Below are positions 2,352 through 59,004 of a stretch of 64,000 bases of DNA, one piece after another. A model generated the notes under the pieces. That model worked only from the letters and a program-made list of their open reading frames with translations, did not search any database and was not told the DNA's origin. A program made the translations under genes and the position numbers. This stretch comes from a phage, in NCBI GenBank assembly GCA_025812035.1, contig GCA_025812035.1_4719.1. One strand, written 5' to 3'. Numbering within the stretch: the first letter of the stretch is position 1; each line of letters opens with the position of its first letter.

Positions 2352-2367
2352 CGCAAAGGTAACATAA

Positions 2368-2399
2368 CCCTCCTCCAACCCGTAAGGGAAGGAGGAGGG
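2368..2399. terminator. GC-rich stem-loop (9-bp CCCTCCTCC/GGAGGAGGG stem, inner CCC-GTAA-GGG) between convergent genes; copy 1 of a 3-copy repeat
   Basis: perfect inverted repeat read directly; sits between the plus-strand gene ending at 2351 and the minus-strand gene ending at 2417; only a weak T-rich tail, so terminator role is inferred. Confidence 0.45.
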
Positions 2400-2416
2400 A
2401 ATATGCTGTTATGTTA

Positions 2417-7496: not shown

Positions 7497-7500
7497 AGCA

Positions 7501-7530
7501 GCTCCTCCTTCCCTTACGGGTTGGAGGAGC
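7501..7530 (-). promoter_or_regulatory. GC-rich stem-loop, repeat copy 2; its 3' arm GGAGGAG lies 5 nt upstream of the ATG at 7496
   Basis: 28-nt core identical to the 2368 and 41224 copies; in the transcript the hairpin 3' arm overlaps the Shine-Dalgarno position. Confidence 0.45.
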
Positions 7531-7538
7531 ATACTTAA

Positions 7539-12711: not shown

Positions 12712-14466
12712 TTATGCTGCTACGTATCCAGGCCAACGTTCTCTTGGCCAGTTTGTTGCACCCTGTCCGACGGTGTCTTTACCAGAAATGACGTTACTTA
12801 CATCCCATCCACTCAGATCCTGATTGAATGCGGTGTTCTCGCGCATCATGAGATCGATCTTACGTAGTGAGTGGGTATTCCAACCAGATATGTCTTGGTT
12901 GAATGCTTTATTGTAGGCAAACATGTTAGACACGTTCTGTAATTTTGACGTGTTCCAACCACTGATGTCGCTATTGAACGACGTGCTTGAGAACATGCTG
13001 CTCGCATCAACAAGATTGTCGGTTTTCCAATTAACCACTTTATCGCCGTCAAATGCATTGCTGCTGCTGAACATAAAACTCATATTGCTAGCTTTGGACA
13101 CATCCCATTTATCTAACCCTTTACCGACGAACTCATTACATGCCGAGAACATCCAGCTCATATCGGTAACCCGACTCACGTTCCATTTGCTGAAGTCAAG
13201 GTTAAGTTTCTGACACCCTAAGAAGGTCTTATACATGTTGGTGATGCGACTAACATCCCACTCTTGGATGTTAGGGTCGTTAAGCGTCGTTAAGTAGTTG
13301 AACAATGTCGCTAACGACGTCCATTTCTCTGGAATCCGGTTTGGTACCGTACGAAGCGATGCAAGGTTGTTGGTTGACGGAGAGCAGAACATACCGTTAT
13401 CCCAATTTACGATTTCCGTAATTTTGGACCCTTTGATCGTCTGAGTGGTATTACCATCTTTCACTATACCCGTAGCAACGATGGTATATTCACCGGTGCC
13501 TGCATAATCGTGGGCGTAGGCACCGTTACTTGAGGTCTCCGTTACTTTATTCCCATCACCCCAATCGATATTAACTTTATCCCACCCACTTAGGTTGAAC
13601 TGTACTTTGCCTCCGGTAGCTTTTAGGATGTATTTACCTCCATTGTCGGTAAAATAGCAGACAACCATTGAACCGTACAGATTACCTATCCGCCAATCAT
13701 CCTTTTCTGTCACTGCGATTTGCGCTAAGCCACGCTGTACGAAGAGTACTGTGCGGTTCTCGTCAGTCTGTAATGTGGCTAATGCTTGGGCCTTATCGTC
13801 CTCGCTAATTTCATTAGCGCTCACTAAAACGCTTAACATTCTTTCGAAGTATTCGATGGGTAATTGACGTCCTACAGACTTATCAACCGACGGTTCAGCA
13901 AGATCGCCCAACGCTGCAGTGGTGGCCAGCATCAACGAACCCTTGGTCATATCTGTTTCTTGTAGGTAGTGCAGTCCTGTAATCTGGTACGCTTGAATAA
14001 TCGTAATCAGGTTCAGCGTATCGTTAACGACCTGTACTTGTAAATGTCCAGACCATACGTAGCTGCTTTCGGCAATTGGTAGTTCGACCGACTGGATACC
14101 TGATGTTTCAAAGGTGATCTTCTTGTTAAGATCGGTTTCCAGGAAATCAACAGCGAGGTCAAAATTTATACCGTACTTCTCAGCGATAGAATCCACGATG
14201 TTTCTGAAAGCAACGTCATTATTTACGATGAAACGTAATGGGATTCCTGCAAACGCTCTAGCAATGTCTCGACGAACATACGTGAGCGACTGCTCGAAGA
14301 AATAGGGGCTACCATCTCGCGGTTTAATGGTCACCTGACATACTTCGGGATATTCAGCTGGGATTAACGACACGAATTCAACATCGGATTCTTTCAATGA
14401 AAGCATATTCTTCCGGTTTACTAATGCCAGAAGATCGGCTTTCCAACCAGGATAAACTGTAGACAT
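12712..14466 (-). CDS. tail fibre-like protein with PKD-like segment and DUF285-type repeats
   Basis: start revised to ATG at 14466 (GGAGTG upstream; MSTVYPGWKADLLALVN aligns with paralog N-termini); IDWGDGNKVT...YAHDYAGTGEYTI is PKD-like; C-terminal repeats of type FNQDISGWNTS..M..MF are DUF285/BspA-like. Confidence 0.6.
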   Translation of the reverse strand: MSTVYPGWKADLLALVNRKNMLSLKESDVEFVSLIPAEYPEVCQVTIKPRDGSPYFFEQSLTYVRRDIARAFAGIPLRFIVNNDVAFRNIVDSIAEKYGINFDLAVDFLETDLNKKITFETSGIQSVELPIAESSYVWSGHLQVQVVNDTLNLITIIQAYQITGLHYLQETDMTKGSLMLATTAALGDLAEPSVDKSVGRQLPIEYFERMLSVLVSANEISEDDKAQALATLQTDENRTVLFVQRGLAQIAVTEKDDWRIGNLYGSMVVCYFTDNGGKYILKATGGKVQFNLSGWDKVNIDWGDGNKVTETSSNGAYAHDYAGTGEYTIVATGIVKDGNTTQTIKGSKITEIVNWDNGMFCSPSTNNLASLRTVPNRIPEKWTSLATLFNYLTTLNDPNIQEWDVSRITNMYKTFLGCQKLNLDFSKWNVSRVTDMSWMFSACNEFVGKGLDKWDVSKASNMSFMFSSSNAFDGDKVVNWKTDNLVDASSMFSSTSFNSDISGWNTSKLQNVSNMFAYNKAFNQDISGWNTHSLRKIDLMMRENTAFNQDLSGWDVSNVISGKDTVGQGATNWPRERWPGYVAA

Positions 14467-14618
14467 AAGCACTCCAATCATGGGGCGGTAACCGCACCCA
14501 ACGGTTAAATTGTCGATTATGGTCGTTGCTGATAAGACGACCATAACCAACGATGTTTAATATGTAGTATATTGATATCATGACGTTATGGGGATCTAAG
14601 TCATACCATGGAGACGGC

Positions 14619-19453: not shown

Positions 19454-19771
19454 TTAGTTTGCACGTAAGAAATGACCCAGAACCGTTACGATTGGGAACA
19501 GTCCTGTGACGGTATTATCACCCGAAAACATCATGTTTGAGCCGTTAACGGTGATGAAGCGGATGTCGGTTGCGGACCCATCAATAGCGACAAAACGCAT
19601 TGAGTTCGGTGGAAGATCCTCAACAACATCCTCGAGGTATTCGCGATTTTCAAAGGCTTCTTTAACACGACGCATGAAACGAATCAAGGTTCCTTCCGCG
19701 TCGGCTTCCAAATGACCTAAGATATCGCGATTGTTGCGAATAGCGAATACAGCCATTTTAAACATACACAT
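19454..19771 (-). CDS. hypothetical protein
   Basis: 105-codon ORF with AAGAGGA upstream. Confidence 0.45.
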   Translation of the reverse strand: MCMFKMAVFAIRNNRDILGHLEADAEGTLIRFMRRVKEAFENREYLEDVVEDLPPNSMRFVAIDGSATDIRFITVNGSNMMFSGDNTVTGLFPIVTVLGHFLRAN

Positions 19772-19835
19772 CTTGACATCCTCTTATATTGGATTGATTG
19801 CTAATAATTCAAGGTGAAGCTAATTACTGCATTGC

Positions 19836-19872
19836 TTCACCTAGGTAATATAGCCGTGAAAATTAATGCATT
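19836..19872. promoter_or_regulatory. 37-nt conserved intergenic element, copy A
   Basis: TTCACCTAGGTAATATAGCCGTGAAAATTAATGCATT; shares an exact 17-mer GTAATATAGCCGTGAAA and flanking TCAC/TGCATT with the element at 49420-49456. Confidence 0.4.
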
Positions 19873-19879
19873 AATCCAT

Positions 19880-20833
19880 TCACGCCTTTGCTATATAGGG
19901 TTGGATCTCATTGATACGTTTAACCACAACCTCAGGGAAAAGTTTGAGTATTTCATCGGGTGGTATTGCACCTTCTGTCCAACGATAGCGTTCAACCTTC
20001 TCGATGCGTGGACTCCCTCCGACGTCAGCGATACGAAAGATACAGGCAATGCCTAAATCAAAACACACGCTGTAAATATCTTCCGTGCCTCCTTTATCAG
20101 CAAGTATTTTCGCAAAATGTTCGTTATCAGGAAGAATGGCTAAATTACGTATACGCCAAACATTATTACCCATTTCTTCAAGGATTGGGTATGTTAAAGT
20201 GTGTCCGTGTCGTGTTAACCATCGATGATTTTCGAGGTAGAAGTCCTTATCCCCTGGCCGGTAACCCAATATCACTCTGGTGTAGAAGAGATTGGGCATG
20301 TCGAGCAGTTCTTGAATCGTTGGACCGGTATACTCCCAGAGACAGATTTGTTTGCGGTCTATATCGTAATCTGTGACGTTACTCACCTCCCAACTTATCG
20401 TAAGTTCGTCAACAACATGCCAACCGAAAGTGTGTTCGCAGCCAAGCAGATTAACAATCGCTGATATCTCATGCTTGTCAAATACCCCCAAATTACATGG
20501 TGGCTGCATCGTACGTAATGGTTCCCACAACACACTGTAATCATAAAGCAAATGGCGACATAAACTTTTTGTTAAGGGTGTATGTTCAGTAAACAGTGGA
20601 AGAATCACCGTATCTAACAGTGGACGTAATGGATGGTTGTCAGGCGGTAGAGGAGAAACCAGACGACCTCCTTCTTTAGGGTAATCAAGACCAAACCCGT
20701 AACGCTCCGAAATGAGTGCGATCAGCACTTTTGCTACGCGATTACGTAGCATGCGATGGATATCATCACTGTAACTGAATTTCGGTTTATTTCCGCAAAC
20801 GAAGGTGAAGTATCTAGGTGATAACTTAACCAT
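19880..20833 (-). CDS. hypothetical protein
   Basis: start revised to ATG at 20833 (AAGGAAAA upstream), which removes a 62-nt overlap; 317 aa, no motif recognised. Confidence 0.45.
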   Translation of the reverse strand: MVKLSPRYFTFVCGNKPKFSYSDDIHRMLRNRVAKVLIALISERYGFGLDYPKEGGRLVSPLPPDNHPLRPLLDTVILPLFTEHTPLTKSLCRHLLYDYSVLWEPLRTMQPPCNLGVFDKHEISAIVNLLGCEHTFGWHVVDELTISWEVSNVTDYDIDRKQICLWEYTGPTIQELLDMPNLFYTRVILGYRPGDKDFYLENHRWLTRHGHTLTYPILEEMGNNVWRIRNLAILPDNEHFAKILADKGGTEDIYSVCFDLGIACIFRIADVGGSPRIEKVERYRWTEGAIPPDEILKLFPEVVVKRINEIQPYIAKA

Positions 20834-20843
20834 AATCTTTTCC

Positions 20844-21290
20844 TTAATCCAAATAGTACGTGATGGATAGGTCTTTTCCATTGAATACAATATCCGTACA
20901 GTCATGGATCGTCGGTAATACCATTTTGGCGGCTACCGGAACATACGCCTGCAACTCCATGAAGTTATCCATACGGAATGCACGACGCACCATCAACGGT
21001 GTTAGTGTAAATGTTACGCTGACGTTACCGCTTGGAGTCAAGTGCATTATCGCATGCCCATGATCGCACCAACAATGGTTTTCGATCCATCCAGTGTAAA
21101 TCAGAATATTTTTATCCTCGTCGTAATAAGCAATGCCAGTCTGCTTTAAACGGCTGGTAAATCGAGAGGCTTGCTCATAGCCTGCACGCAACATTCGAGC
21201 AACCAGGCGAGTGTTGTTAGCGATTCGATTCTGTTCGTTGGTTTTTGTGGTTTTGAAAAGTTCGATACGTTCTGCTTTTGTAATTTGCAT
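20844..21290 (-). CDS. hypothetical protein
   Basis: 148-codon ORF. Confidence 0.45.
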   Translation of the reverse strand: MQITKAERIELFKTTKTNEQNRIANNTRLVARMLRAGYEQASRFTSRLKQTGIAYYDEDKNILIYTGWIENHCWCDHGHAIMHLTPSGNVSVTFTLTPLMVRRAFRMDNFMELQAYVPVAAKMVLPTIHDCTDIVFNGKDLSITYYLD

Positions 21291-41201: not shown

Positions 41202-41223
41202 GTTAACCTCAATACGAACATAA

Positions 41224-41255
41224 CCCTCCTCCTTCCCTTACGGGTTGGAGGAGGG
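41224..41255. repeat. GC-rich stem-loop, repeat copy 3 (32/32 identical to the reverse complement of copy 1)
   Basis: CCCTCCTCCTTCCCTTACGGGTTGGAGGAGGG on the plus strand; intergenic between two minus-strand genes. Confidence 0.5.
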
Positions 41256-41264
41256 GATATGCTG

Positions 41265-48685: not shown

Positions 48686-49372
48686 TTAACACATGATTTC
48701 GCCATGTTTCTTTTCAACATACATATAAACGTCATCCAAATAAGCGATGAGTTTATCACGATTCGCACAAAGCGATTTAATCATTGCAATCTCTCTCATG
48801 TAAAGCTGCTTACCTAATGCCGGATAAGTAATCCAAGCATAGCCGTCAGGGGCAAATTTAGAAATAAGATAATCAGCAGTTTCCTGCAAGGCGAACTCTT
48901 TGCTCATCTGACCGTAACGATGCTCGATTGCACGGATACCAAAACGTTCGCTGTCAAGACGACCCATATCCGCCAAACGAAGAACCTGTGAAGCAACCGA
49001 GCTGCGAGGACCGGAATAGGAGGCGCGATGTTCAGCAATAAGCACGCGTATCTCCTCGATGTCTTCCGGTGTGAAAATATCTTGCTCGTTACGAAGCAAA
49101 ATAACTGACGCACGAATACCACCGATAAGGTGGTGGTATGTTCTGTTTTCGTGGCAAGCAATATCATGCATAAAAGCAGCGGTTAATAAACGACGACGTT
49201 CCGTGGGTCTAATGATACCAACCACGTCAGCAAGTTCATTTGCCAGTTCGACAACCGCGAGTACATGCTCTTCTTGATGCGCAAGATCATTCTTACGAAT
49301 ATTTTCAATTACTTCGGCGCGTGTTTCCTGAGTTAAGAACTTTAAACAATCCAACGAATATAAAGATTTCAT
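48686..49372 (-). CDS. HD-domain phosphohydrolase-like protein
   Basis: HQEEH...AAFMHDIA pattern (H...HD) consistent with the HD superfamily. Confidence 0.55.
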   Translation of the reverse strand: MKSLYSLDCLKFLTQETRAEVIENIRKNDLAHQEEHVLAVVELANELADVVGIIRPTERRRLLTAAFMHDIACHENRTYHHLIGGIRASVILLRNEQDIFTPEDIEEIRVLIAEHRASYSGPRSSVASQVLRLADMGRLDSERFGIRAIEHRYGQMSKEFALQETADYLISKFAPDGYAWITYPALGKQLYMREIAMIKSLCANRDKLIAYLDDVYMYVEKKHGEIMC

Positions 49373-49419
49373 CGTACGTACCTCTTTGAATCGGTAAATA
49401 TATTAATAAATATTGTTTA

Positions 49420-49456
49420 CTCACGTAAGTAATATAGCCGTGAAAGGATTTGCATT
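49420..49456. promoter_or_regulatory. 37-nt conserved intergenic element, copy B, in the divergent region
   Basis: CTCACGTAAGTAATATAGCCGTGAAAGGATTTGCATT; exact 17-mer shared with 19845-19861. Confidence 0.4.
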
Positions 49457-49526
49457 GGTCCGTTTCGATGACCATCGTATTTTATGGATTGTCGAATGAC
49501 GTCATTTTTAAAGGGACATCCCCGGC

Positions 49527-49560
49527 CTCCTCCCCGGGAAAGGTGCGGGGAGGAGTTTTT
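49527..49560 (+). terminator. plus-strand stem-loop (10-bp CTCCTCCCCG/CGGGGAGGAG) followed by TTTTT, ~30 nt upstream of the helicase start
   Basis: read directly; location upstream of a gene makes attenuator or 5'-UTR structure an alternative. Confidence 0.4.
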
Positions 49561-51671: not shown

Positions 51672-51772
51672 TTAAGAAGCTCTGCCTGATGTCAGGCAGA
51701 GCTTTATGCTGCGTTTACTGCAAAATCGTATGACGTATATACGTCGTAATGATTAAAAATAGGGCAGAACAC

Positions 51773-53227
51773 ATGAAACTCAAACAAAGCTGGAAAAACG
51801 AACTCCTTGCATTAGTAAACAGCAAAAACAGTTTACAACTGACATTAGACGACGTAAAATTTGAACTAACCGAACCGGTAAGCGAAGTGCCTGGAACGGT
51901 CGTTGTTACGATCAAACCGAACGATAATAGTCGCTACTTTAACGAGCAGTCTCTGACCTACGTCCGTCGAGACATTGCTAAAAACTTCACCGGGATTCCG
52001 TTACGGGTTATCGTTAAAAAAGATACCGCCGTAAGGGATATCATCAGTACGATTGCTAAACGTTACGGACTGGTATTTGATACCACTGTCGACTTCCTCG
52101 AATCAGAACTGAATAAGCAAATTACTTTCGCAGACACCGGTATTAAAGACGTTACGGTTCCGGTTGCCAATACGTCTTATGTTTGGGCCGGTAATCTTCA
52201 GTTCAATATCGCTAACGATACGTTAAGCTTGATTACTATCATCAAGAAAACCGATCTTACGAATCTGGTTTATCTGGATGGTGTTGAAGCTGACACATCG
52301 GGGTCGTTACTGTTAGCAACCGCAGCACTTGTTAACGAACACGTAAATGAACCGATGGTTGAAAACGAAGATATCGTTAATGAATTCATTAACGTTCTTA
52401 ATGCTCTAGCCAAATATGGTGACATAACCGGCGATGAATTAGATGCCGCCTTACAAGCGTACGATGAAGCAGAAAACAGGAATAAAACCACGGTAATAAC
52501 TCTTGGTGATATCGAGTGCGTTGCAACCGAAAAAGACGATTGGGAAATTGGACATTTACGCGGTCGGATGGTTCTCGCGCTCAAATCCGATAAACAACCG
52601 GAGCTCGATAACACGTTCAGGTTGTTTACGAATGGTGGTGATGTATCGCTAACGTTAAACACAATGAAAGATATAAGTATCGATTGGGGTGATGGGAATA
52701 AAGTAACGTTGGATGCCGAAGAAAGATACGCGCACCACACATATGCCGACAATAACCAATACCAAATCGAAATTGTGTCTCGTACGGACCCAGATGTGCT
52801 GCGACCAAATTATATTTCTGGGAGTGAGATAACCGAAGTAATTCACTGGGCTACTACTTCAACAATAGCTCTGAATTTTGTTGGATGCGATAATTTAGCG
52901 ACTGTTCCAGATGAGATCCCAACTTCGTGGACAACGTTGGACAGCATGTTTGAAAGTTGTACGAATTTGAATGATCCGTCTATCTCTAACTGGAATACAA
53001 GTAACATCACATCAATGAATGGTATGTTCGGCGGATGCACTAAATTTAACCAACCTTTAGCTGCCTGGGATGTCAGCTCGGTAACTGACATTGGTGGTAT
53101 GTTTGTCGGGTGTAGCAGTTTTAACCAAGATTTAAGTGGATGGCGATTACCGTCTGGAGTAAACCACCGCGATTACGATAGTGGTGCTTTCTCGTGGCAG
53201 ACGGAACATAAACCGACGTTCAAGTAA
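51773..53227 (+). CDS. tail fibre-like protein (shared N-domain, PKD-like segment, DUF285-type repeats)
   Basis: start revised to ATG at 51773 (MKLKQSWKNELLALVN aligns with paralog N-termini); IDWGDGNKVT...YAHHTY; C-terminal ...FNQPLAAWDVSSVTDIGGMF...FNQDLSGW. Confidence 0.55.
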   Translation: MKLKQSWKNELLALVNSKNSLQLTLDDVKFELTEPVSEVPGTVVVTIKPNDNSRYFNEQSLTYVRRDIAKNFTGIPLRVIVKKDTAVRDIISTIAKRYGLVFDTTVDFLESELNKQITFADTGIKDVTVPVANTSYVWAGNLQFNIANDTLSLITIIKKTDLTNLVYLDGVEADTSGSLLLATAALVNEHVNEPMVENEDIVNEFINVLNALAKYGDITGDELDAALQAYDEAENRNKTTVITLGDIECVATEKDDWEIGHLRGRMVLALKSDKQPELDNTFRLFTNGGDVSLTLNTMKDISIDWGDGNKVTLDAEERYAHHTYADNNQYQIEIVSRTDPDVLRPNYISGSEITEVIHWATTSTIALNFVGCDNLATVPDEIPTSWTTLDSMFESCTNLNDPSISNWNTSNITSMNGMFGGCTKFNQPLAAWDVSSVTDIGGMFVGCSSFNQDLSGWRLPSGVNHRDYDSGAFSWQTEHKPTFK

Positions 53228-54598: not shown

Positions 54599-56856
54599 AA
54601 TTCGAAATCTTCATCGATAACGCGCTGTGTGAGCACCTTGTCACTGAAGAACTCTACTTTGCGCTGATGGTATTTACGGTGCGCTTCGATAGAGGTACAC
54701 ACCAGATACCAGAACGTTGGCGTCATTCCTTCAAACTTCCCTTTCAGCTGACGCAGTCGCCCCAACACCTGAATGTTACCGGTTCGTGATCCCATCGCTA
54801 ACGTCATGAACGCCATCACCAAATCAGGGAGGTCGATACCTGTCCCCGCCGATTTCACGGTTGTAACGCTGATATCGTTATCCAACAAGACCATGAAATC
54901 TTCTTCAGCGGTATAAGGACCGATCTCTAACTCGGGAATACGTTCACTGAGATAGTGCGACAATGACTTACACATATCAACGGTTGCACAATACACCAGC
55001 ATCTTCATACCTTCCTGATACTGGTTCATGAAACCTTTGATGATAACCGTATAGATAAAGTTGAAATACGCGAGTTTGAGTTGCTTATTCTTCATGATAG
55101 ACTGTTCGAATATCGTGTGTGAATAAGAACCCCCAAAGCCTTTGTATCTGATTTTATCTGTACTACGTAGTCGATACGTCACGGCATTTACCGCAATGTA
55201 TTTCTTGTATTCGCCTTTTGCGAAACGCGCTTCTTTCGGATACATCAAATACAACATCCGCTCGATGAACGGATCATCGGATACCGCTGTTGCCGACAGA
55301 TAAATGATTTCCGGAATATTGGCGTAACACTTGACTTTAAACAAGAAATGCAAGGCTTCGTGACATTCGTCGTGAATCAGTAGACCTATACCCGTCTTTT
55401 CCCAAAACTCAGCGGGATGGAAGGCGTATGGCGCAACGCAGTTATTCTTCTCGTAGTCCGCAATATAACGTTGGAACATGTTCAAGGAGAATAACGCGAT
55501 TTTGAAATCCAGCTCGCCTTGTTCCACCAACGTCTGGAATTCCAGCATGCTGTAACGAGGAATGTCGGGATGCGGTGGATCCTCCTTAGCGTTCCCGCGT
55601 ATCTCAATAACGTCCCCTGGTTCCATTCCGAAGAAGTTCAGCAATGAGCTTCGCCAACCTGGCATATACCGTGGAGAGAGTATGATGCCTGTGCGTACAC
55701 CACGTCGAAACACGATTTCCTGTGACATCGCGGTGTTGTGTGTGACGATGTGGTCTTTAATGACATAAAGGCTTTCGTCATTATCCACCGTGATGCAACG
55801 TGCTTTCGCTTTAACTGTCGGTACGATGCTATCAATCGCTAAACCAGGAAGCCTGTTAACAGGGAGATCGTCTGGAATCTCAACGTCGTCAGGAATAAGC
55901 TTAAGTAAATCGGAATGATAAATTAATGTCTCCATCGTGTAACTATCGATGGGGCATTTATACGCAATTCCTCCTAACTGATACGCCAACTCCCAAACCT
56001 TGGTTGTTATCTGTGAATCAACGGTTCTGACCGCAAGGTGAGCCTGTCCGTTTTCGATTCGCAACTCACAACGACCTTTGACCACCACCTTAAATTCTTC
56101 GAGACCTACGAGTTCTTTCGGTTCGTAAAGTCGGATTCTTATCGGACGGGGTCTGGCAGGTTTATCGTAAAGACATTCCATGATTTCGTCTGTGCTGAGA
56201 ACCTTATCGGGGTCAGTACAACGCCAGAGATGATCGCCACAAGCTTCAACCATTCTACCGTCCTCAAAGAAGATAGCATAAAGCTGAATATTGTCATGAT
56301 CGAAGATCGCTGTAACGTTGGTCGGTAGCCCATTCGCACCAATAACCCGATCCCCTACTTGAAGCTCACCAATCGGCTTCCAACCACCTGGAACCTTTAC
56401 AGGCGTATGAAGCGCTAGCGCTTTGCCACTGCCTGTTTGAGCGGTGTTTAGGCTCATTCTGAAGGGGGTATCCTTACCCCCGTTCATGTACTCCAGCCAT
56501 TCTTGCTGATCTTCTCGCCACGGAAACTTCCATTTCTTTACGAACTCCACTTCCTTACCGGGTACCGGATCATGGTAAACGATCTCCAGCCACTCTTTTC
56601 GGATTCCTCGGGAAAAGATAAAATCCAAAAACGATTTCAACTGTTCGCGGAGTAAGTATACCTCGCTATAATCGCTTCTCGCTGCGGCATACGTGTTTAT
56701 GGTATCGGTAACCATTCTCCGTGTACGAGGGTCACGTCGTTTCCTCAGATGCAAACAACGGTCTCGAAGGTAATGGCCGATAAGATGGGCAAATCGAAGT
56801 CCGTATCCGCTCAGCTTCATGCCATGCGAGAAGACGTCGATACGAGCTAACTTCAT
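54595..56856 (-). CDS. DExH-box helicase interrupted by an intein
   Basis: Walker A AQTGSGK...T split by an insertion; motif II LIHDECHE; SAT; motif V/VI VKSAGTGIDLPD and QVLGRLRQ. Confidence 0.7.
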   Translation of the reverse strand: MKLARIDVFSHGMKLSGYGLRFAHLIGHYLRDRCLHLRKRRDPRTRRMVTDTINTYAAARSDYSEVYLLREQLKSFLDFIFSRGIRKEWLEIVYHDPVPGKEVEFVKKWKFPWREDQQEWLEYMNGGKDTPFRMSLNTAQTGSGKALALHTPVKVPGGWKPIGELQVGDRVIGANGLPTNVTAIFDHDNIQLYAIFFEDGRMVEACGDHLWRCTDPDKVLSTDEIMECLYDKPARPRPIRIRLYEPKELVGLEEFKVVVKGRCELRIENGQAHLAVRTVDSQITTKVWELAYQLGGIAYKCPIDSYTMETLIYHSDLLKLIPDDVEIPDDLPVNRLPGLAIDSIVPTVKAKARCITVDNDESLYVIKDHIVTHNTAMSQEIVFRRGVRTGIILSPRYMPGWRSSLLNFFGMEPGDVIEIRGNAKEDPPHPDIPRYSMLEFQTLVEQGELDFKIALFSLNMFQRYIADYEKNNCVAPYAFHPAEFWEKTGIGLLIHDECHEALHFLFKVKCYANIPEIIYLSATAVSDDPFIERMLYLMYPKEARFAKGEYKKYIAVNAVTYRLRSTDKIRYKGFGGSYSHTIFEQSIMKNKQLKLAYFNFIYTVIIKGFMNQYQEGMKMLVYCATVDMCKSLSHYLSERIPELEIGPYTAEEDFMVLLDNDISVTTVKSAGTGIDLPDLVMAFMTLAMGSRTGNIQVLGRLRQLKGKFEGMTPTFWYLVCTSIEAHRKYHQRKVEFFSDKVLTQRVIDEDFEL
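55735..56421 (-). other. intein (~229 aa) inserted in the helicase P-loop
   Basis: N-terminal block ALALHTPVKVPGGWKPIGELQVGDRVIG resembles intein block A but begins with Ala; C-terminal block ...SLYVIKDHIVTHN followed by Thr; removing it restores GSGKT. Confidence 0.55.
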
Positions 56857-58859
56857 AACGTGAATACATCCTCTGGTTTAGGTTCTTTACGCGGTAAAAG
56901 CATGTAGTCGATCGGATGATCCGGCTTCATGGTTGGGATATAACTGTTCGGGTTTTGGAACGCATCCAGCTGCTCTTGGTGGGCGAACTTCATACTCAAG
57001 GAGCGCATGTTCATGTTCTTCTTGAAGGTACTGAAGTATCGTGTTGTTCCCTGTTTCGGCATGCGATAATCTTTCGTGTGTGGCGAACGAATCATGCTAG
57101 CGTAGAGAATAACATCGAGATGCGAGAGGTTCATTCGCAGACGCTGGGCACATAGACGATGCCAATAATACAGCACGTTTGCAACTTCTTCCGGCGTTGC
57201 TTCGTCTTCCGAAAGGAATCCAGCACTGAAAGAACCTTTCCCGAATTTGAATTCACGTTCGATTTCTTTTGCGTATTCCATCATGTTTTTGTGGATTAAC
57301 GGCATCTGGAATAACGTACGTGAATTGTCCCAATGTTTCAAGTCGAAAATCACAATCCCATCGGACGTCACTTCCCAGCTATGGCGTTTGAGATAACGGA
57401 TAAACGCTTTACTCGGCACAACGGGACGCCCACAGAAATCGAAATTGACTTTGAGCTTACGATAGCTTTCATCTTTCCTGTCGTAAATCTCCATATCACA
57501 AAGCGTCATGTTAAACAAACGCTGCGGTATCAGCGAACTGATTTCTTCCGCTTCTGCTACGTCGTACAACATGTTGGCAAGACCTAACTTCATCTTAATC
57601 AACACATGTTTACCTTTCAGCTCACGTGCGAGTTTGATGTCGTTCATGTTCTGGCTGTAGCGAAGGATATGTTGATATTCCGGCGGGATCGGTGCTGTGG
57701 ATACCGTCGACGAACCATCGTGGTGTTTGGTAGAAAGAATGTTCTGTGTTACCTGTTGCGAACAGGTACGCGCTGCACCATCGCCAACATTATCGGTTAA
57801 TGCGAAGTTATGGCTTAATTCACCATAACACGTCGTGCACACCCCGGCTGGATCGGGATGATGGCAATAGTTAACGGAGCGCATACGCACTGTCGTGCCG
57901 ATTAATTCTTTCATATGCGGCTGTATCGCTACCAATGAACCGTCGTCGCGAATAATGAATCGACCGTGGAATCCACGTAGGTCGGTCTCATCACGGATTG
58001 GCATCGGGATGGTCTCTTTACTACCACAATCACCAGGATGGAGTCGTTGTACAACCGCTGTCGCTATCTGAAGTTCACGACCGAAATACTCAGACTTTTT
58101 AATCTGCTCTTTGTTGAACAGCAACGATTTCGCTGCAGAACGGCTTTCTTTCAAGCTGTCGGGAAGAGAGATCAAACCGGCTGCGTATGACCGCATTACC
58201 GGGTCACGGAATATCTCGGAGTTAATATCAGTTAAGAATCCACGCATTCCGATACATTGCAACACCTGCCCGATCGAAACGTGTTCGGTTCTTACCGCAC
58301 GTGCGATAGGGTTAGCATGCAACGTTTTATCGGTGCTTAACACCTTCGTCAGTTTCTTGTATGCGCTTTCGATGCCTTCGCGGGTAGGCTCCGCTTCAGC
58401 GATGATTTTCTTAACTTCAGGGTGTACGGTAATCTGATAAAAATCGTCCGCGCAAATAGTTGTTACGTATTCCTCCAACGCATACGTAAAGAAGTTATAT
58501 ACGTTATTAAACATATCGAACAGTGCTTTCCAGAGAACCTCGCGATTCTCTTGCGGATAAGCATACATGCACTGACGATATGCGGCGCTTTGCAACGCAA
58601 CCGATGAACCAGCGGTAAACTTGCGTTTATCGACCAGGTTCTCTTTTGTCAACGGTGTCTCAGGGTACATGCGATGCACAGACCAATGCATGTAGCTAAA
58701 GAAAATGCGTCGCGCACGCAGTTCATGAACACCATCATCCATCTCGATATACACGCGGTCATTAGGCTGTGCCCACTCGAACACCTCATCAACAGGCCAA
58801 TGCATAAGCTCGCGTGCCCGCACACGGCGTTTCGTGCCGGTCATCTGTGTTGTAGTCAT
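56853..58859 (-). CDS. hypothetical large protein (668 aa), co-operonic with the helicase
   Basis: 4-nt overlap with the helicase start; Cys/His cluster CHHPDPAGVCTTC; no family recognised. Confidence 0.5.
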   Translation of the reverse strand: MTTTQMTGTKRRVRARELMHWPVDEVFEWAQPNDRVYIEMDDGVHELRARRIFFSYMHWSVHRMYPETPLTKENLVDKRKFTAGSSVALQSAAYRQCMYAYPQENREVLWKALFDMFNNVYNFFTYALEEYVTTICADDFYQITVHPEVKKIIAEAEPTREGIESAYKKLTKVLSTDKTLHANPIARAVRTEHVSIGQVLQCIGMRGFLTDINSEIFRDPVMRSYAAGLISLPDSLKESRSAAKSLLFNKEQIKKSEYFGRELQIATAVVQRLHPGDCGSKETIPMPIRDETDLRGFHGRFIIRDDGSLVAIQPHMKELIGTTVRMRSVNYCHHPDPAGVCTTCYGELSHNFALTDNVGDGAARTCSQQVTQNILSTKHHDGSSTVSTAPIPPEYQHILRYSQNMNDIKLARELKGKHVLIKMKLGLANMLYDVAEAEEISSLIPQRLFNMTLCDMEIYDRKDESYRKLKVNFDFCGRPVVPSKAFIRYLKRHSWEVTSDGIVIFDLKHWDNSRTLFQMPLIHKNMMEYAKEIEREFKFGKGSFSAGFLSEDEATPEEVANVLYYWHRLCAQRLRMNLSHLDVILYASMIRSPHTKDYRMPKQGTTRYFSTFKKNMNMRSLSMKFAHQEQLDAFQNPNSYIPTMKPDHPIDYMLLPRKEPKPEDVFTL

Positions 58860-58913: not shown

Positions 58914-59004
58914 TTTACTATCGCTGTGATAGCATTGGGAATCCCTTCCCTTAGGTTATGTAGGTGTTAATATATCTCCACTACTGACGTAAAGGTCAGC
59001 AGCA

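Follow-up and report, generated by a model that had tools for sequence, protein, structure and literature searches.

The window analysed in this work is a stretch of phage DNA of 64,000 nucleotides. It is about 91% identical to the Escherichia coli phage Goslar (Chimalliviridae), a 237-kb nucleus-forming jumbo phage. The window contains two copies of a short element, called copy A and copy B below. The exact 17-mer GTAATATAGCCGTGAAA shared by them is present on the plus strand at 19845-19861 and 49429-49445, as the original prediction claimed, and the 37-nt consensus proposed for the two places holds as well (29 of 37 positions of the two stretches are identical in register). Beyond the motif, the sequences around A show no relation to those around B.

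Both copies had been described as intergenic, and the coordinates of the neighbouring genes confirm this. Copy A is located between the stop codon of the gene 19880..20905(-) and ATG 19771 of the gene 19454..19771(-); the last base of its core is 74 nt upstream of this ATG. Copy B indeed occupies the divergent gap between an HD-domain gene (ATG 49372) and an SNF2-type helicase gene (ATG 49590; the helicase name follows the Goslar annotation), 57 nt upstream of ATG 49372. Almost all genes near both sites are encoded by the minus strand. The element, too, is read on the minus (here coding) strand, in agreement with the hint at the bottom strand in the original prediction. On this strand copy A is ATTAATGCATTAAT-TTTCACGGC-TATATTAC-CTAG-GTGA and copy B is ACCAATGCAAATCC-TTTCACGGC-TATATTAC-TTAC-GTGA, with the shared form TTAAYNCA-N5-TTTCACGGC-TATATTAC-YTNN-GTGA. 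The spacer between TCAC and GTGA, given previously as 16 nt, measures 15 nt in each copy. The features are as follows.

19830..19875, minus strand: copy A, full 46-nt early-promoter match ATTAATGCATTAATTTTCACGGCTATATTACCTAGGTGAAGCAATG (42.1 bits), intergenic, in the orientation of the downstream gene
19867..19874, minus strand: upstream element of copy A, TTAATGCA, region of about -35..-28 (family consensus TTAAYNCA)
19856..19861, minus strand: TTTCAC of copy A, about -23..-18, formerly described as the GTGAAA arm; conserved in the motif family
19845..19852, minus strand: core of copy A, TATATTAC, about -14..-7, equal to the published phiKZ early-promoter core
19837..19840, minus strand: initiation box GTGA of copy A, formerly described as the TCAC arm; the spacing of TG after the core is fixed
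about 19838 (+/-2 nt), minus strand: predicted +1 of copy A
19772..19838, minus strand: predicted 5' leader after copy A, about 67 nt, derived from the predicted +1
19454..19771, minus strand: first gene after copy A, 105 aa, ortholog of Goslar gp105
49414..49459, minus strand: copy B, full 46-nt early-promoter match ACCAATGCAAATCCTTTCACGGCTATATTACTTACGTGAGTAAACA (36.9 bits), pointing toward the HD gene
49440..49445, minus strand: TTTCAC element of copy B, conserved in the motif family
49429..49436, minus strand: core of copy B, TATATTAC, exact match
49421..49424, minus strand: initiation box GTGA of copy B, assigned by the same reasoning as in copy A
about 49422, minus strand: predicted +1 of copy B, with a predicted leader of about 50 nt to ATG 49372
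48686..49372, minus strand: first gene after copy B, HD-domain phosphohydrolase (Pfam HD, E=5e-8), Goslar gp159
58940..58985, minus strand: possible third, weaker site with core TACATAAC and box GGGA (16.4 bits), intergenic and correctly oriented

A search of the 105-aa protein encoded by 19454..19771(-) gave no Pfam match. If the element is a promoter, its upstream part (TTAAYNCA here, an A-tract in other copies) would lie at about -35..-28, TTTCAC at about -23..-18 and the near-invariant core TAYATTAC at about -14..-7, all with fixed spacing. The initiation box YTNN(G/A)TGA would come next, and the start is predicted at the G of TG. The +1 positions were placed at about 19838 and 49422 because the literature on phiKZ and 201phi2-1 centres the core near -10 and because an invariant TG stands 6-7 nt past the core.

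The repeat taken alone is only modest evidence, since about 0.24 pairs of 17-mers are expected to recur by chance in 64 kb. About six such pairs of places were found in the window, most of them other real repeats. The pattern from the original prediction, with at most 3 mismatches allowed, matched at least twice in 3 of 100 shuffled sequences. The strong evidence is the motif family to which the two copies belong.

To describe this family, the Goslar genome was assembled from five segments and then scanned for the motif. The scan returned 12 strong sites of the form TTTCACGRC-TAYATTAC-YTNN(G/A)TGA on the minus strand and none on the plus strand. All 12 are intergenic and stand 32-212 nt upstream of a minus-strand ATG; one of them precedes the gene of chimallin, the nuclear shell protein. 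The orthologs of copies A and B are among the 12, with 17-mers identical to those of the window; the Goslar annotation marks no promoter at either of these two orthologous sites. The core TAYATTAC is near-invariant throughout the 12 sites, TG follows it after 5 nt in every case, and the upstream element is TTAAYNCA in eight sites and ATTGAAAAAAA in the other four. The looser pattern TAYATWAC-YT-NN-NTG has 13 matches in Goslar and two in the window, every one of them on the minus strand. Taken together, Goslar has 12 strong sites and one or two variants.

A weight matrix was then built from 10 Goslar sites, leaving out the orthologs of A and B, and 200 dinucleotide shuffles of the window were used as a control. 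With this leave-out matrix copy A reaches 42.1 bits and copy B 36.9 bits; the shuffles have a maximum of 16.5 and a mean of 2.8. The whole-genome search for the 17-mer, recommended along with the original prediction, was run on Goslar and gave four occurrences; each large Goslar-like contig of IMG/VR has 3-4. The element is therefore not confined to two places, and its family comprises 12-13 sites in Goslar. Searches of IMG/VR for the 17-mer and for relatives of the HD protein returned only Goslar-like contigs and one unrelated chance match, and no distant orthologous promoters. The alignment of the window with Goslar is uninformative on selective conservation of the element, because the intergenic regions of A and B are 95-97% identical throughout.

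Published expression data allow the sites to be compared with the transcription of Goslar. Armbruster et al. (bioRxiv 10.1101/2023.09.20.558163) found that knockdown of chimallin (ChmA) stalls Goslar at the early infection (EPI) vesicle, which contains the genome and the virion polymerase (vRNAP); according to these authors, vRNAP expresses the early programme there. We used the per-gene RNA-seq values of their Supplementary Table 2 (knockdown vs control). Replicate A log2FC was taken for genome-wide statistics, and for key genes all three replicates, which agree, are quoted. These data describe Goslar, about 91% identical to the phage of the window, and log2FC is a ratio affected by normalisation. 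We infer that the result applies to the window's phage too.

The Goslar log2FC values have a bimodal distribution, with 146 features above -2, 103 at or below it and none between -2.4 and -1.4. The first genes after the motif sites are all expressed (12/12, log2FC 0.49-1.32, median 1.04). There are nine 5' boundaries of minus-strand blocks, i.e., places where an expressed gene has a silent upstream neighbour, and all nine carry the motif (eight strong sites and one weak variant; hypergeometric P=3.9e-11). The median step in log2FC is 4.21 at motif sites vs 0.00 at the 204 other junctions (Mann-Whitney p=3e-8).

Copy B is located at one of the sharp steps. The divergent helicase gene gp160 has log2FC of -5.1/-5.3/-5.8 in the three replicates, and gp159, on the other side, +1.11/0.90/0.96. 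From gp159 onward the values decay to about 0-0.2 by gp106 (0.19/0.23/-0.06 for gp106 itself). After copy A they return to 1.08/1.01/0.96 at gp105, remain at about +1 through gp096 and reach -5.4 at gp093. The step at copy A is only about +0.9 because the genes upstream of it are already transcribed. We also observed that gp159..gp094 form a block of 66 minus-strand genes, from about 49372 to about 14300 in window coordinates, over which the knockdown/control ratio falls smoothly from copy B and resets at copy A. This profile fits a role of copy B as the head of an early block of about 35 kb and of copy A as its internal booster. Copy B would start the long leftward block headed by the HD phosphohydrolase gene, and copy A, internal to it, would restore full transcription for the next ten or so genes. 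For the window this means that the minus-strand genes in the run of about 35 kb from the HD gene most likely form an early unit, with copy B as its driver and copy A boosting it again, and that the divergent helicase gene most likely belongs to the later, nucleus-dependent programme. Two early promoters apparently serving about 35 kb would imply either very long vRNAP transcripts or further unrecognised promoters.

The variant at 58940-58985 reads AGTGGAGAT...CC-TACATAAC-CTAAG-GGA and lies upstream of an RNA polymerase beta-like gene, 56853..58859(-). It is not significant from sequence alone, because its 16.4 bits equal the shuffle maximum. The corresponding step in Goslar log2FC is from 0.07 to 0.50. 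Its sibling at Goslar 187617-187662, upstream of gp225, is a true block boundary (-5.47 to +1.12). The two variants may represent a second, weaker sub-class of early promoters.

One published detail concerns the position of the start site. In the Goslar paper, the legend of Extended Data Fig. 4 has the displayed chmA "TSS sequence" starting 91 nt upstream of the ATG. This point is 2 nt before the TTT element, and if it were the true +1, the motif itself would be transcribed. The legend gives the identical 91 nt for the next gene, which suggests that the figure shows a stretch of set length and not a mapped +1.

The same expression data bear on which of the phage polymerases uses the element. 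It might be a middle or late promoter of nvRNAP instead of a vRNAP promoter: both enzymes are phage-encoded multisubunit polymerases, chimallin of phiKZ has early as well as middle start sites, and the subunit genes of nvRNAP are transcribed in the knockdown. However, the motif-headed genes are fully on in the pre-nucleus stall, while 103 other features are down by 3-8 log2 units. Besides, the element differs from the motifs published for middle (AAAATTACC / TACT at about -22) and late (TATG at +1) promoters, and the phiKZ enzyme gave no robust in vitro transcription from an early-promoter template. We regard use by nvRNAP as very unlikely.

The element closely resembles published consensus sequences. 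The core of the phiKZ early-promoter consensus is TATATTAC; the early-promoter consensus of 201phi2-1 is TTTRARR_BTATATTACDWHDGTG, and that of N1M2 is TTTCARRYAKATATTATYWAAGTG. The counterpart in the window is TTTCACGGC-TATATTAC-CTAG/TTAC-GTG. TTTCA or TTTRA is a part of the published consensus of N1M2, OBP and 201phi2-1. According to reviews and papers on start-site mapping, early start sites lie about 10 bp downstream of the AT-rich core. Early promoters of phiKZ are described as having a T-rich motif upstream of -19, and those of 201phi2-1 as conserved at -10, -20 and -30. In these papers, phiKZ-like early promoters are assigned to the virion polymerase that enters with the DNA.

When a 30-kb segment of phiKZ was scanned with the Goslar matrix, the top five matches were all on the coding strand. 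Four of the five are intergenic and directly upstream of PHIKZ041.3, 068, 054 (chimallin) and 058.1; an early primary start site of PHIKZ054 has been mapped by dRNA-seq. We also compared regions upstream of chimallin genes found by tblastn (the threshold E<=1e-20 gave four records, and 1e-4 was used thereafter). The comparison covered Klebsiella phage Eowyn, PhiPA3, Ralstonia phage RSL2, Erwinia phage RAY, Pseudomonas phage Noxifer, Proteus phage 10, Goslar and phiKZ. All eight genera have an A-tract or T-rich element, TATAT(T/C)AC, N5 and TG at fixed spacing upstream of chimallin. The layout TTT-N6-core-N5-TG is common to both window copies, the 12 Goslar sites and the regions upstream of chimallin in the eight genera.

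These results leave a negligible chance that the repeat is a functionless coincidence or the remnant of a recent duplication. The expectation of about 0.24 17-mers and the 3 of 100 shuffles mentioned above speak for coincidence. A duplication could be suspected from leaders: the ribosome-binding region of the copy A leader (AATCCAATATAAGAGGATGTCAAGATG, 19772-19800(-)) is almost the same as in the leader of gp075 in Goslar, a gene that is motif-headed too, and the near identity of the gp075 and gp105 leaders in Goslar suggests that some promoter-leader cassettes have been duplicated. Yet the flanks of A and B share nothing outside the motif, and the leave-out scores are far above those of shuffles. 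The matrix scores, the RNA-seq boundaries and the conservation in eight genera, together with the single orientation of the family, refute this reading.

The original prediction offered two functions for the element, a promoter core or a site for a dimeric regulator. The first is supported by the motif family, the published consensus and the block starts in Goslar. The second would make the TCAC-N15-GTGA inverted repeat an operator. Both window copies and 10-11 of the 12 Goslar sites do have a short inverted TCA...TGA pair, and TTTCA...GTG recurs in the consensus published for N1M2 and for OBP. Against it, the symmetry is limited to 3-4 bp per arm, with only TCA/TGA symmetric, and the TATATTAC core between the arms is asymmetric: none of the 12 sites is complementary at three consecutive pairs. 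A symmetric operator needs no fixed orientation, whereas the 12-13 sites share one orientation and none is on the plus strand. The sites also coincide with the starts of transcription blocks, and the left arm differs from genus to genus (TTTGAG, TTTACA, ATTACA), with TG at a constant spacing. An operator is thus most improbable, and TTTCAC and (G/A)TGA are better read as separate directional elements of a promoter.

A promoter could in principle be a host one. TATATT agrees with the sigma-70 -10 hexamer TATAAT in 5/6 positions and copy A has TTAATG 16 nt upstream of it, as might be expected if E. coli RNA polymerase used the element at the start of infection. A consensus scan for sigma-70-type promoters found no match at either site, however, and copy B shows CCAATG at the -35 position. 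The conserved TTTCAC at -20, the final C of the core and the TGA box are not sigma-70 elements. Moreover, expression of these genes takes place while the genome is inside the EPI vesicle, phiKZ infection is rifampicin-resistant, and the motif also occurs in phages of Pseudomonas, Ralstonia, Erwinia and Proteus. We consider recognition by the host enzyme to be very improbable.

With these alternatives weighed, we conclude that copies A and B serve a nucleus-forming jumbo phage of the Goslar type (Chimalliviridae) as early promoters, directed along the bottom strand and read by the injected vRNAP; the probability of this reading is, in our estimate, about 0.92. The vRNAP genes themselves are located outside the window; packaging of the enzyme is known from Goslar (about 91% identical), in whose virions all five vRNAP subunits have been detected. 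We infer, as does the literature, that vRNAP recognises the motif; our literature search found no report of direct vRNAP binding to the motif or of in vitro transcription from it for any chimallivirus.

Several other sequence features are found near the two promoters. The palindromes ATTAATGCATTAAT (14 bp, 19862-19875) and AATGACGTCATT (12 bp, 49495-49506) have the coordinates ascribed to them. The 14-bp palindrome overlaps the upstream part of copy A, but neither Goslar nor an IMG/VR relative has it, and it is therefore incidental. Similarly, the TGCATT arm included in the proposed 37-nt consensus is present in both window copies, but it is not conserved, since Goslar has AATACA and AACACA there (AATGCA in the window vs AATACA in Goslar illustrates how the upstream element varies). 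The AATGACGTCATT palindrome is conserved in Goslar, yet it is outside the promoter. Its only other copy in Goslar is in the 5' leader of chimallin, and chance would give about 0.014 copies per genome. Its offset from the promoter differs between the two places (about -73..-84 at copy B and about +25..+36 at chmA). It could be a regulator site.

The predicted transcript from copy A opens with the hairpin GGTGAAGC-N13-GCTTCACC at 19813-19841(-) (dG -7.3, z -2.1), whose stem is kept and whose loop differs in Goslar and an IMG/VR relative. A stem-loop formed from the (G/A)TGA box is present at copy A and at about half of the Goslar sites: 5'-terminal hairpins were predicted at 7/13 of them vs 28% of random windows (p=0.045, mean z -1.4). 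The genome-wide signal is too weak to claim. It is conceivable, though doubtful, that the (G/A)TGA box also serves as the 5' strand of a stem-loop on early mRNAs, as a shared feature of vesicle-stage transcripts. Such hairpins might, e.g., protect the transcripts from host 5'-end-dependent RNases or mark them for export from the EPI vesicle, and the TCA...TGA pair would then reflect a constraint acting on the DNA as well as on the RNA.

Hairpins of other kinds were also observed. The GC-rich hairpin CCCTCCTCC-AACCCGTAAGGG-AAGGAGGAGGG occurs in three near-identical copies, at about 2366-2405 (+), 7500-7535 (-) and 41222-41258 (-), each directly followed by (A/T)TATG. Similar modules of a hairpin and TTTATG are found upstream of Goslar gp156, gp183 and gp236. 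The phiKZ late (nvRNAP) promoter consensus is TATG with G at +1, so these modules could combine a terminator and a late promoter. A terminator-like hairpin, CTCCTCCCCG-N9-CGGGGAGGAG-TTTTT, lies at about 49521-49558 (+), just upstream of the helicase ATG 49590. No plus-strand gene precedes it, the Goslar annotation marks it as a terminator, and TATG is present at 49483-49486. This hairpin could stop antisense read-through or be situated in the helicase leader. Finally, a 31-bp identical inverted stretch (13540-13570 and 52678-52708) is not a regulatory repeat. It lies in the open reading frames 12712..14550(-) and 51749..53227(+), is read in the same sense in both, and is a coding segment common to two related proteins.

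In E. coli, Goslar serves as the principal model of the phage nucleus and of the early infection vesicle, and the sequence-defined sites explain every vesicle-stage block boundary in the published RNA-seq. The motif provides a simple rule for calling vRNAP-dependent units in the Goslar genus. The copies are compact candidate parts for reporters and engineering, as well as defined templates for biochemical studies of vRNAP promoters. The motif class is well known, so its presence here is no conceptual surprise. We found no published promoter consensus for Goslar-type coliphages; as far as could be found, the consensus and the list of sites are a useful annotation for these phages.

The element can be compared with early promoters of other phages that inject a polymerase. 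Early genes of N4 are likewise read by an injected virion polymerase from phage-specific promoters, but that vRNAP is a single-subunit enzyme and recognises a DNA hairpin. The window element has no comparable stable DNA hairpin, because its sole pairing is a 4-bp stem with a 15-nt loop. In AR9 and PBS2, which follow the same strategy, the injected polymerase is multisubunit and the early promoters have an AT-rich element of about 10 nt centred at about -10. They differ in consensus, uracil DNA, the lack of a phage nucleus and family.

The phages 201phi2-1, OBP, N1M2 and EL belong to other hosts and genera, and the exact bases at -20 and -30 differ. The consensus sequences of 201phi2-1 (obtained by ONT-cappable-seq) and N1M2 match the window element nearly position for position, including GTG; the early promoters of N1M2, OBP and EL are predictions only. 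The phiKZ early promoters, 28-32 of which were mapped by primer extension, RNA-seq and dRNA-seq, have the same core TATATTAC, a T-rich element upstream at the same spacing (TTT-N6-core) and TG 5 nt past the core. Likewise, they are intergenic, lie on the coding strand and number tens per genome, and one precedes chimallin and nvRNAP genes. Compared with TTTGAGATY of phiKZ, the -20 element of Goslar-type sites, TTTCACGRC, is more G+C-rich and more strongly conserved. Goslar-type sites also have a conserved GTGA box, most of them have TTAAYNCA at -30 rather than an A-tract, and their core tolerates C at position 3 (TACATTAC). With these differences of detail, the window element is the standard early promoter of the phiKZ-like phage family.
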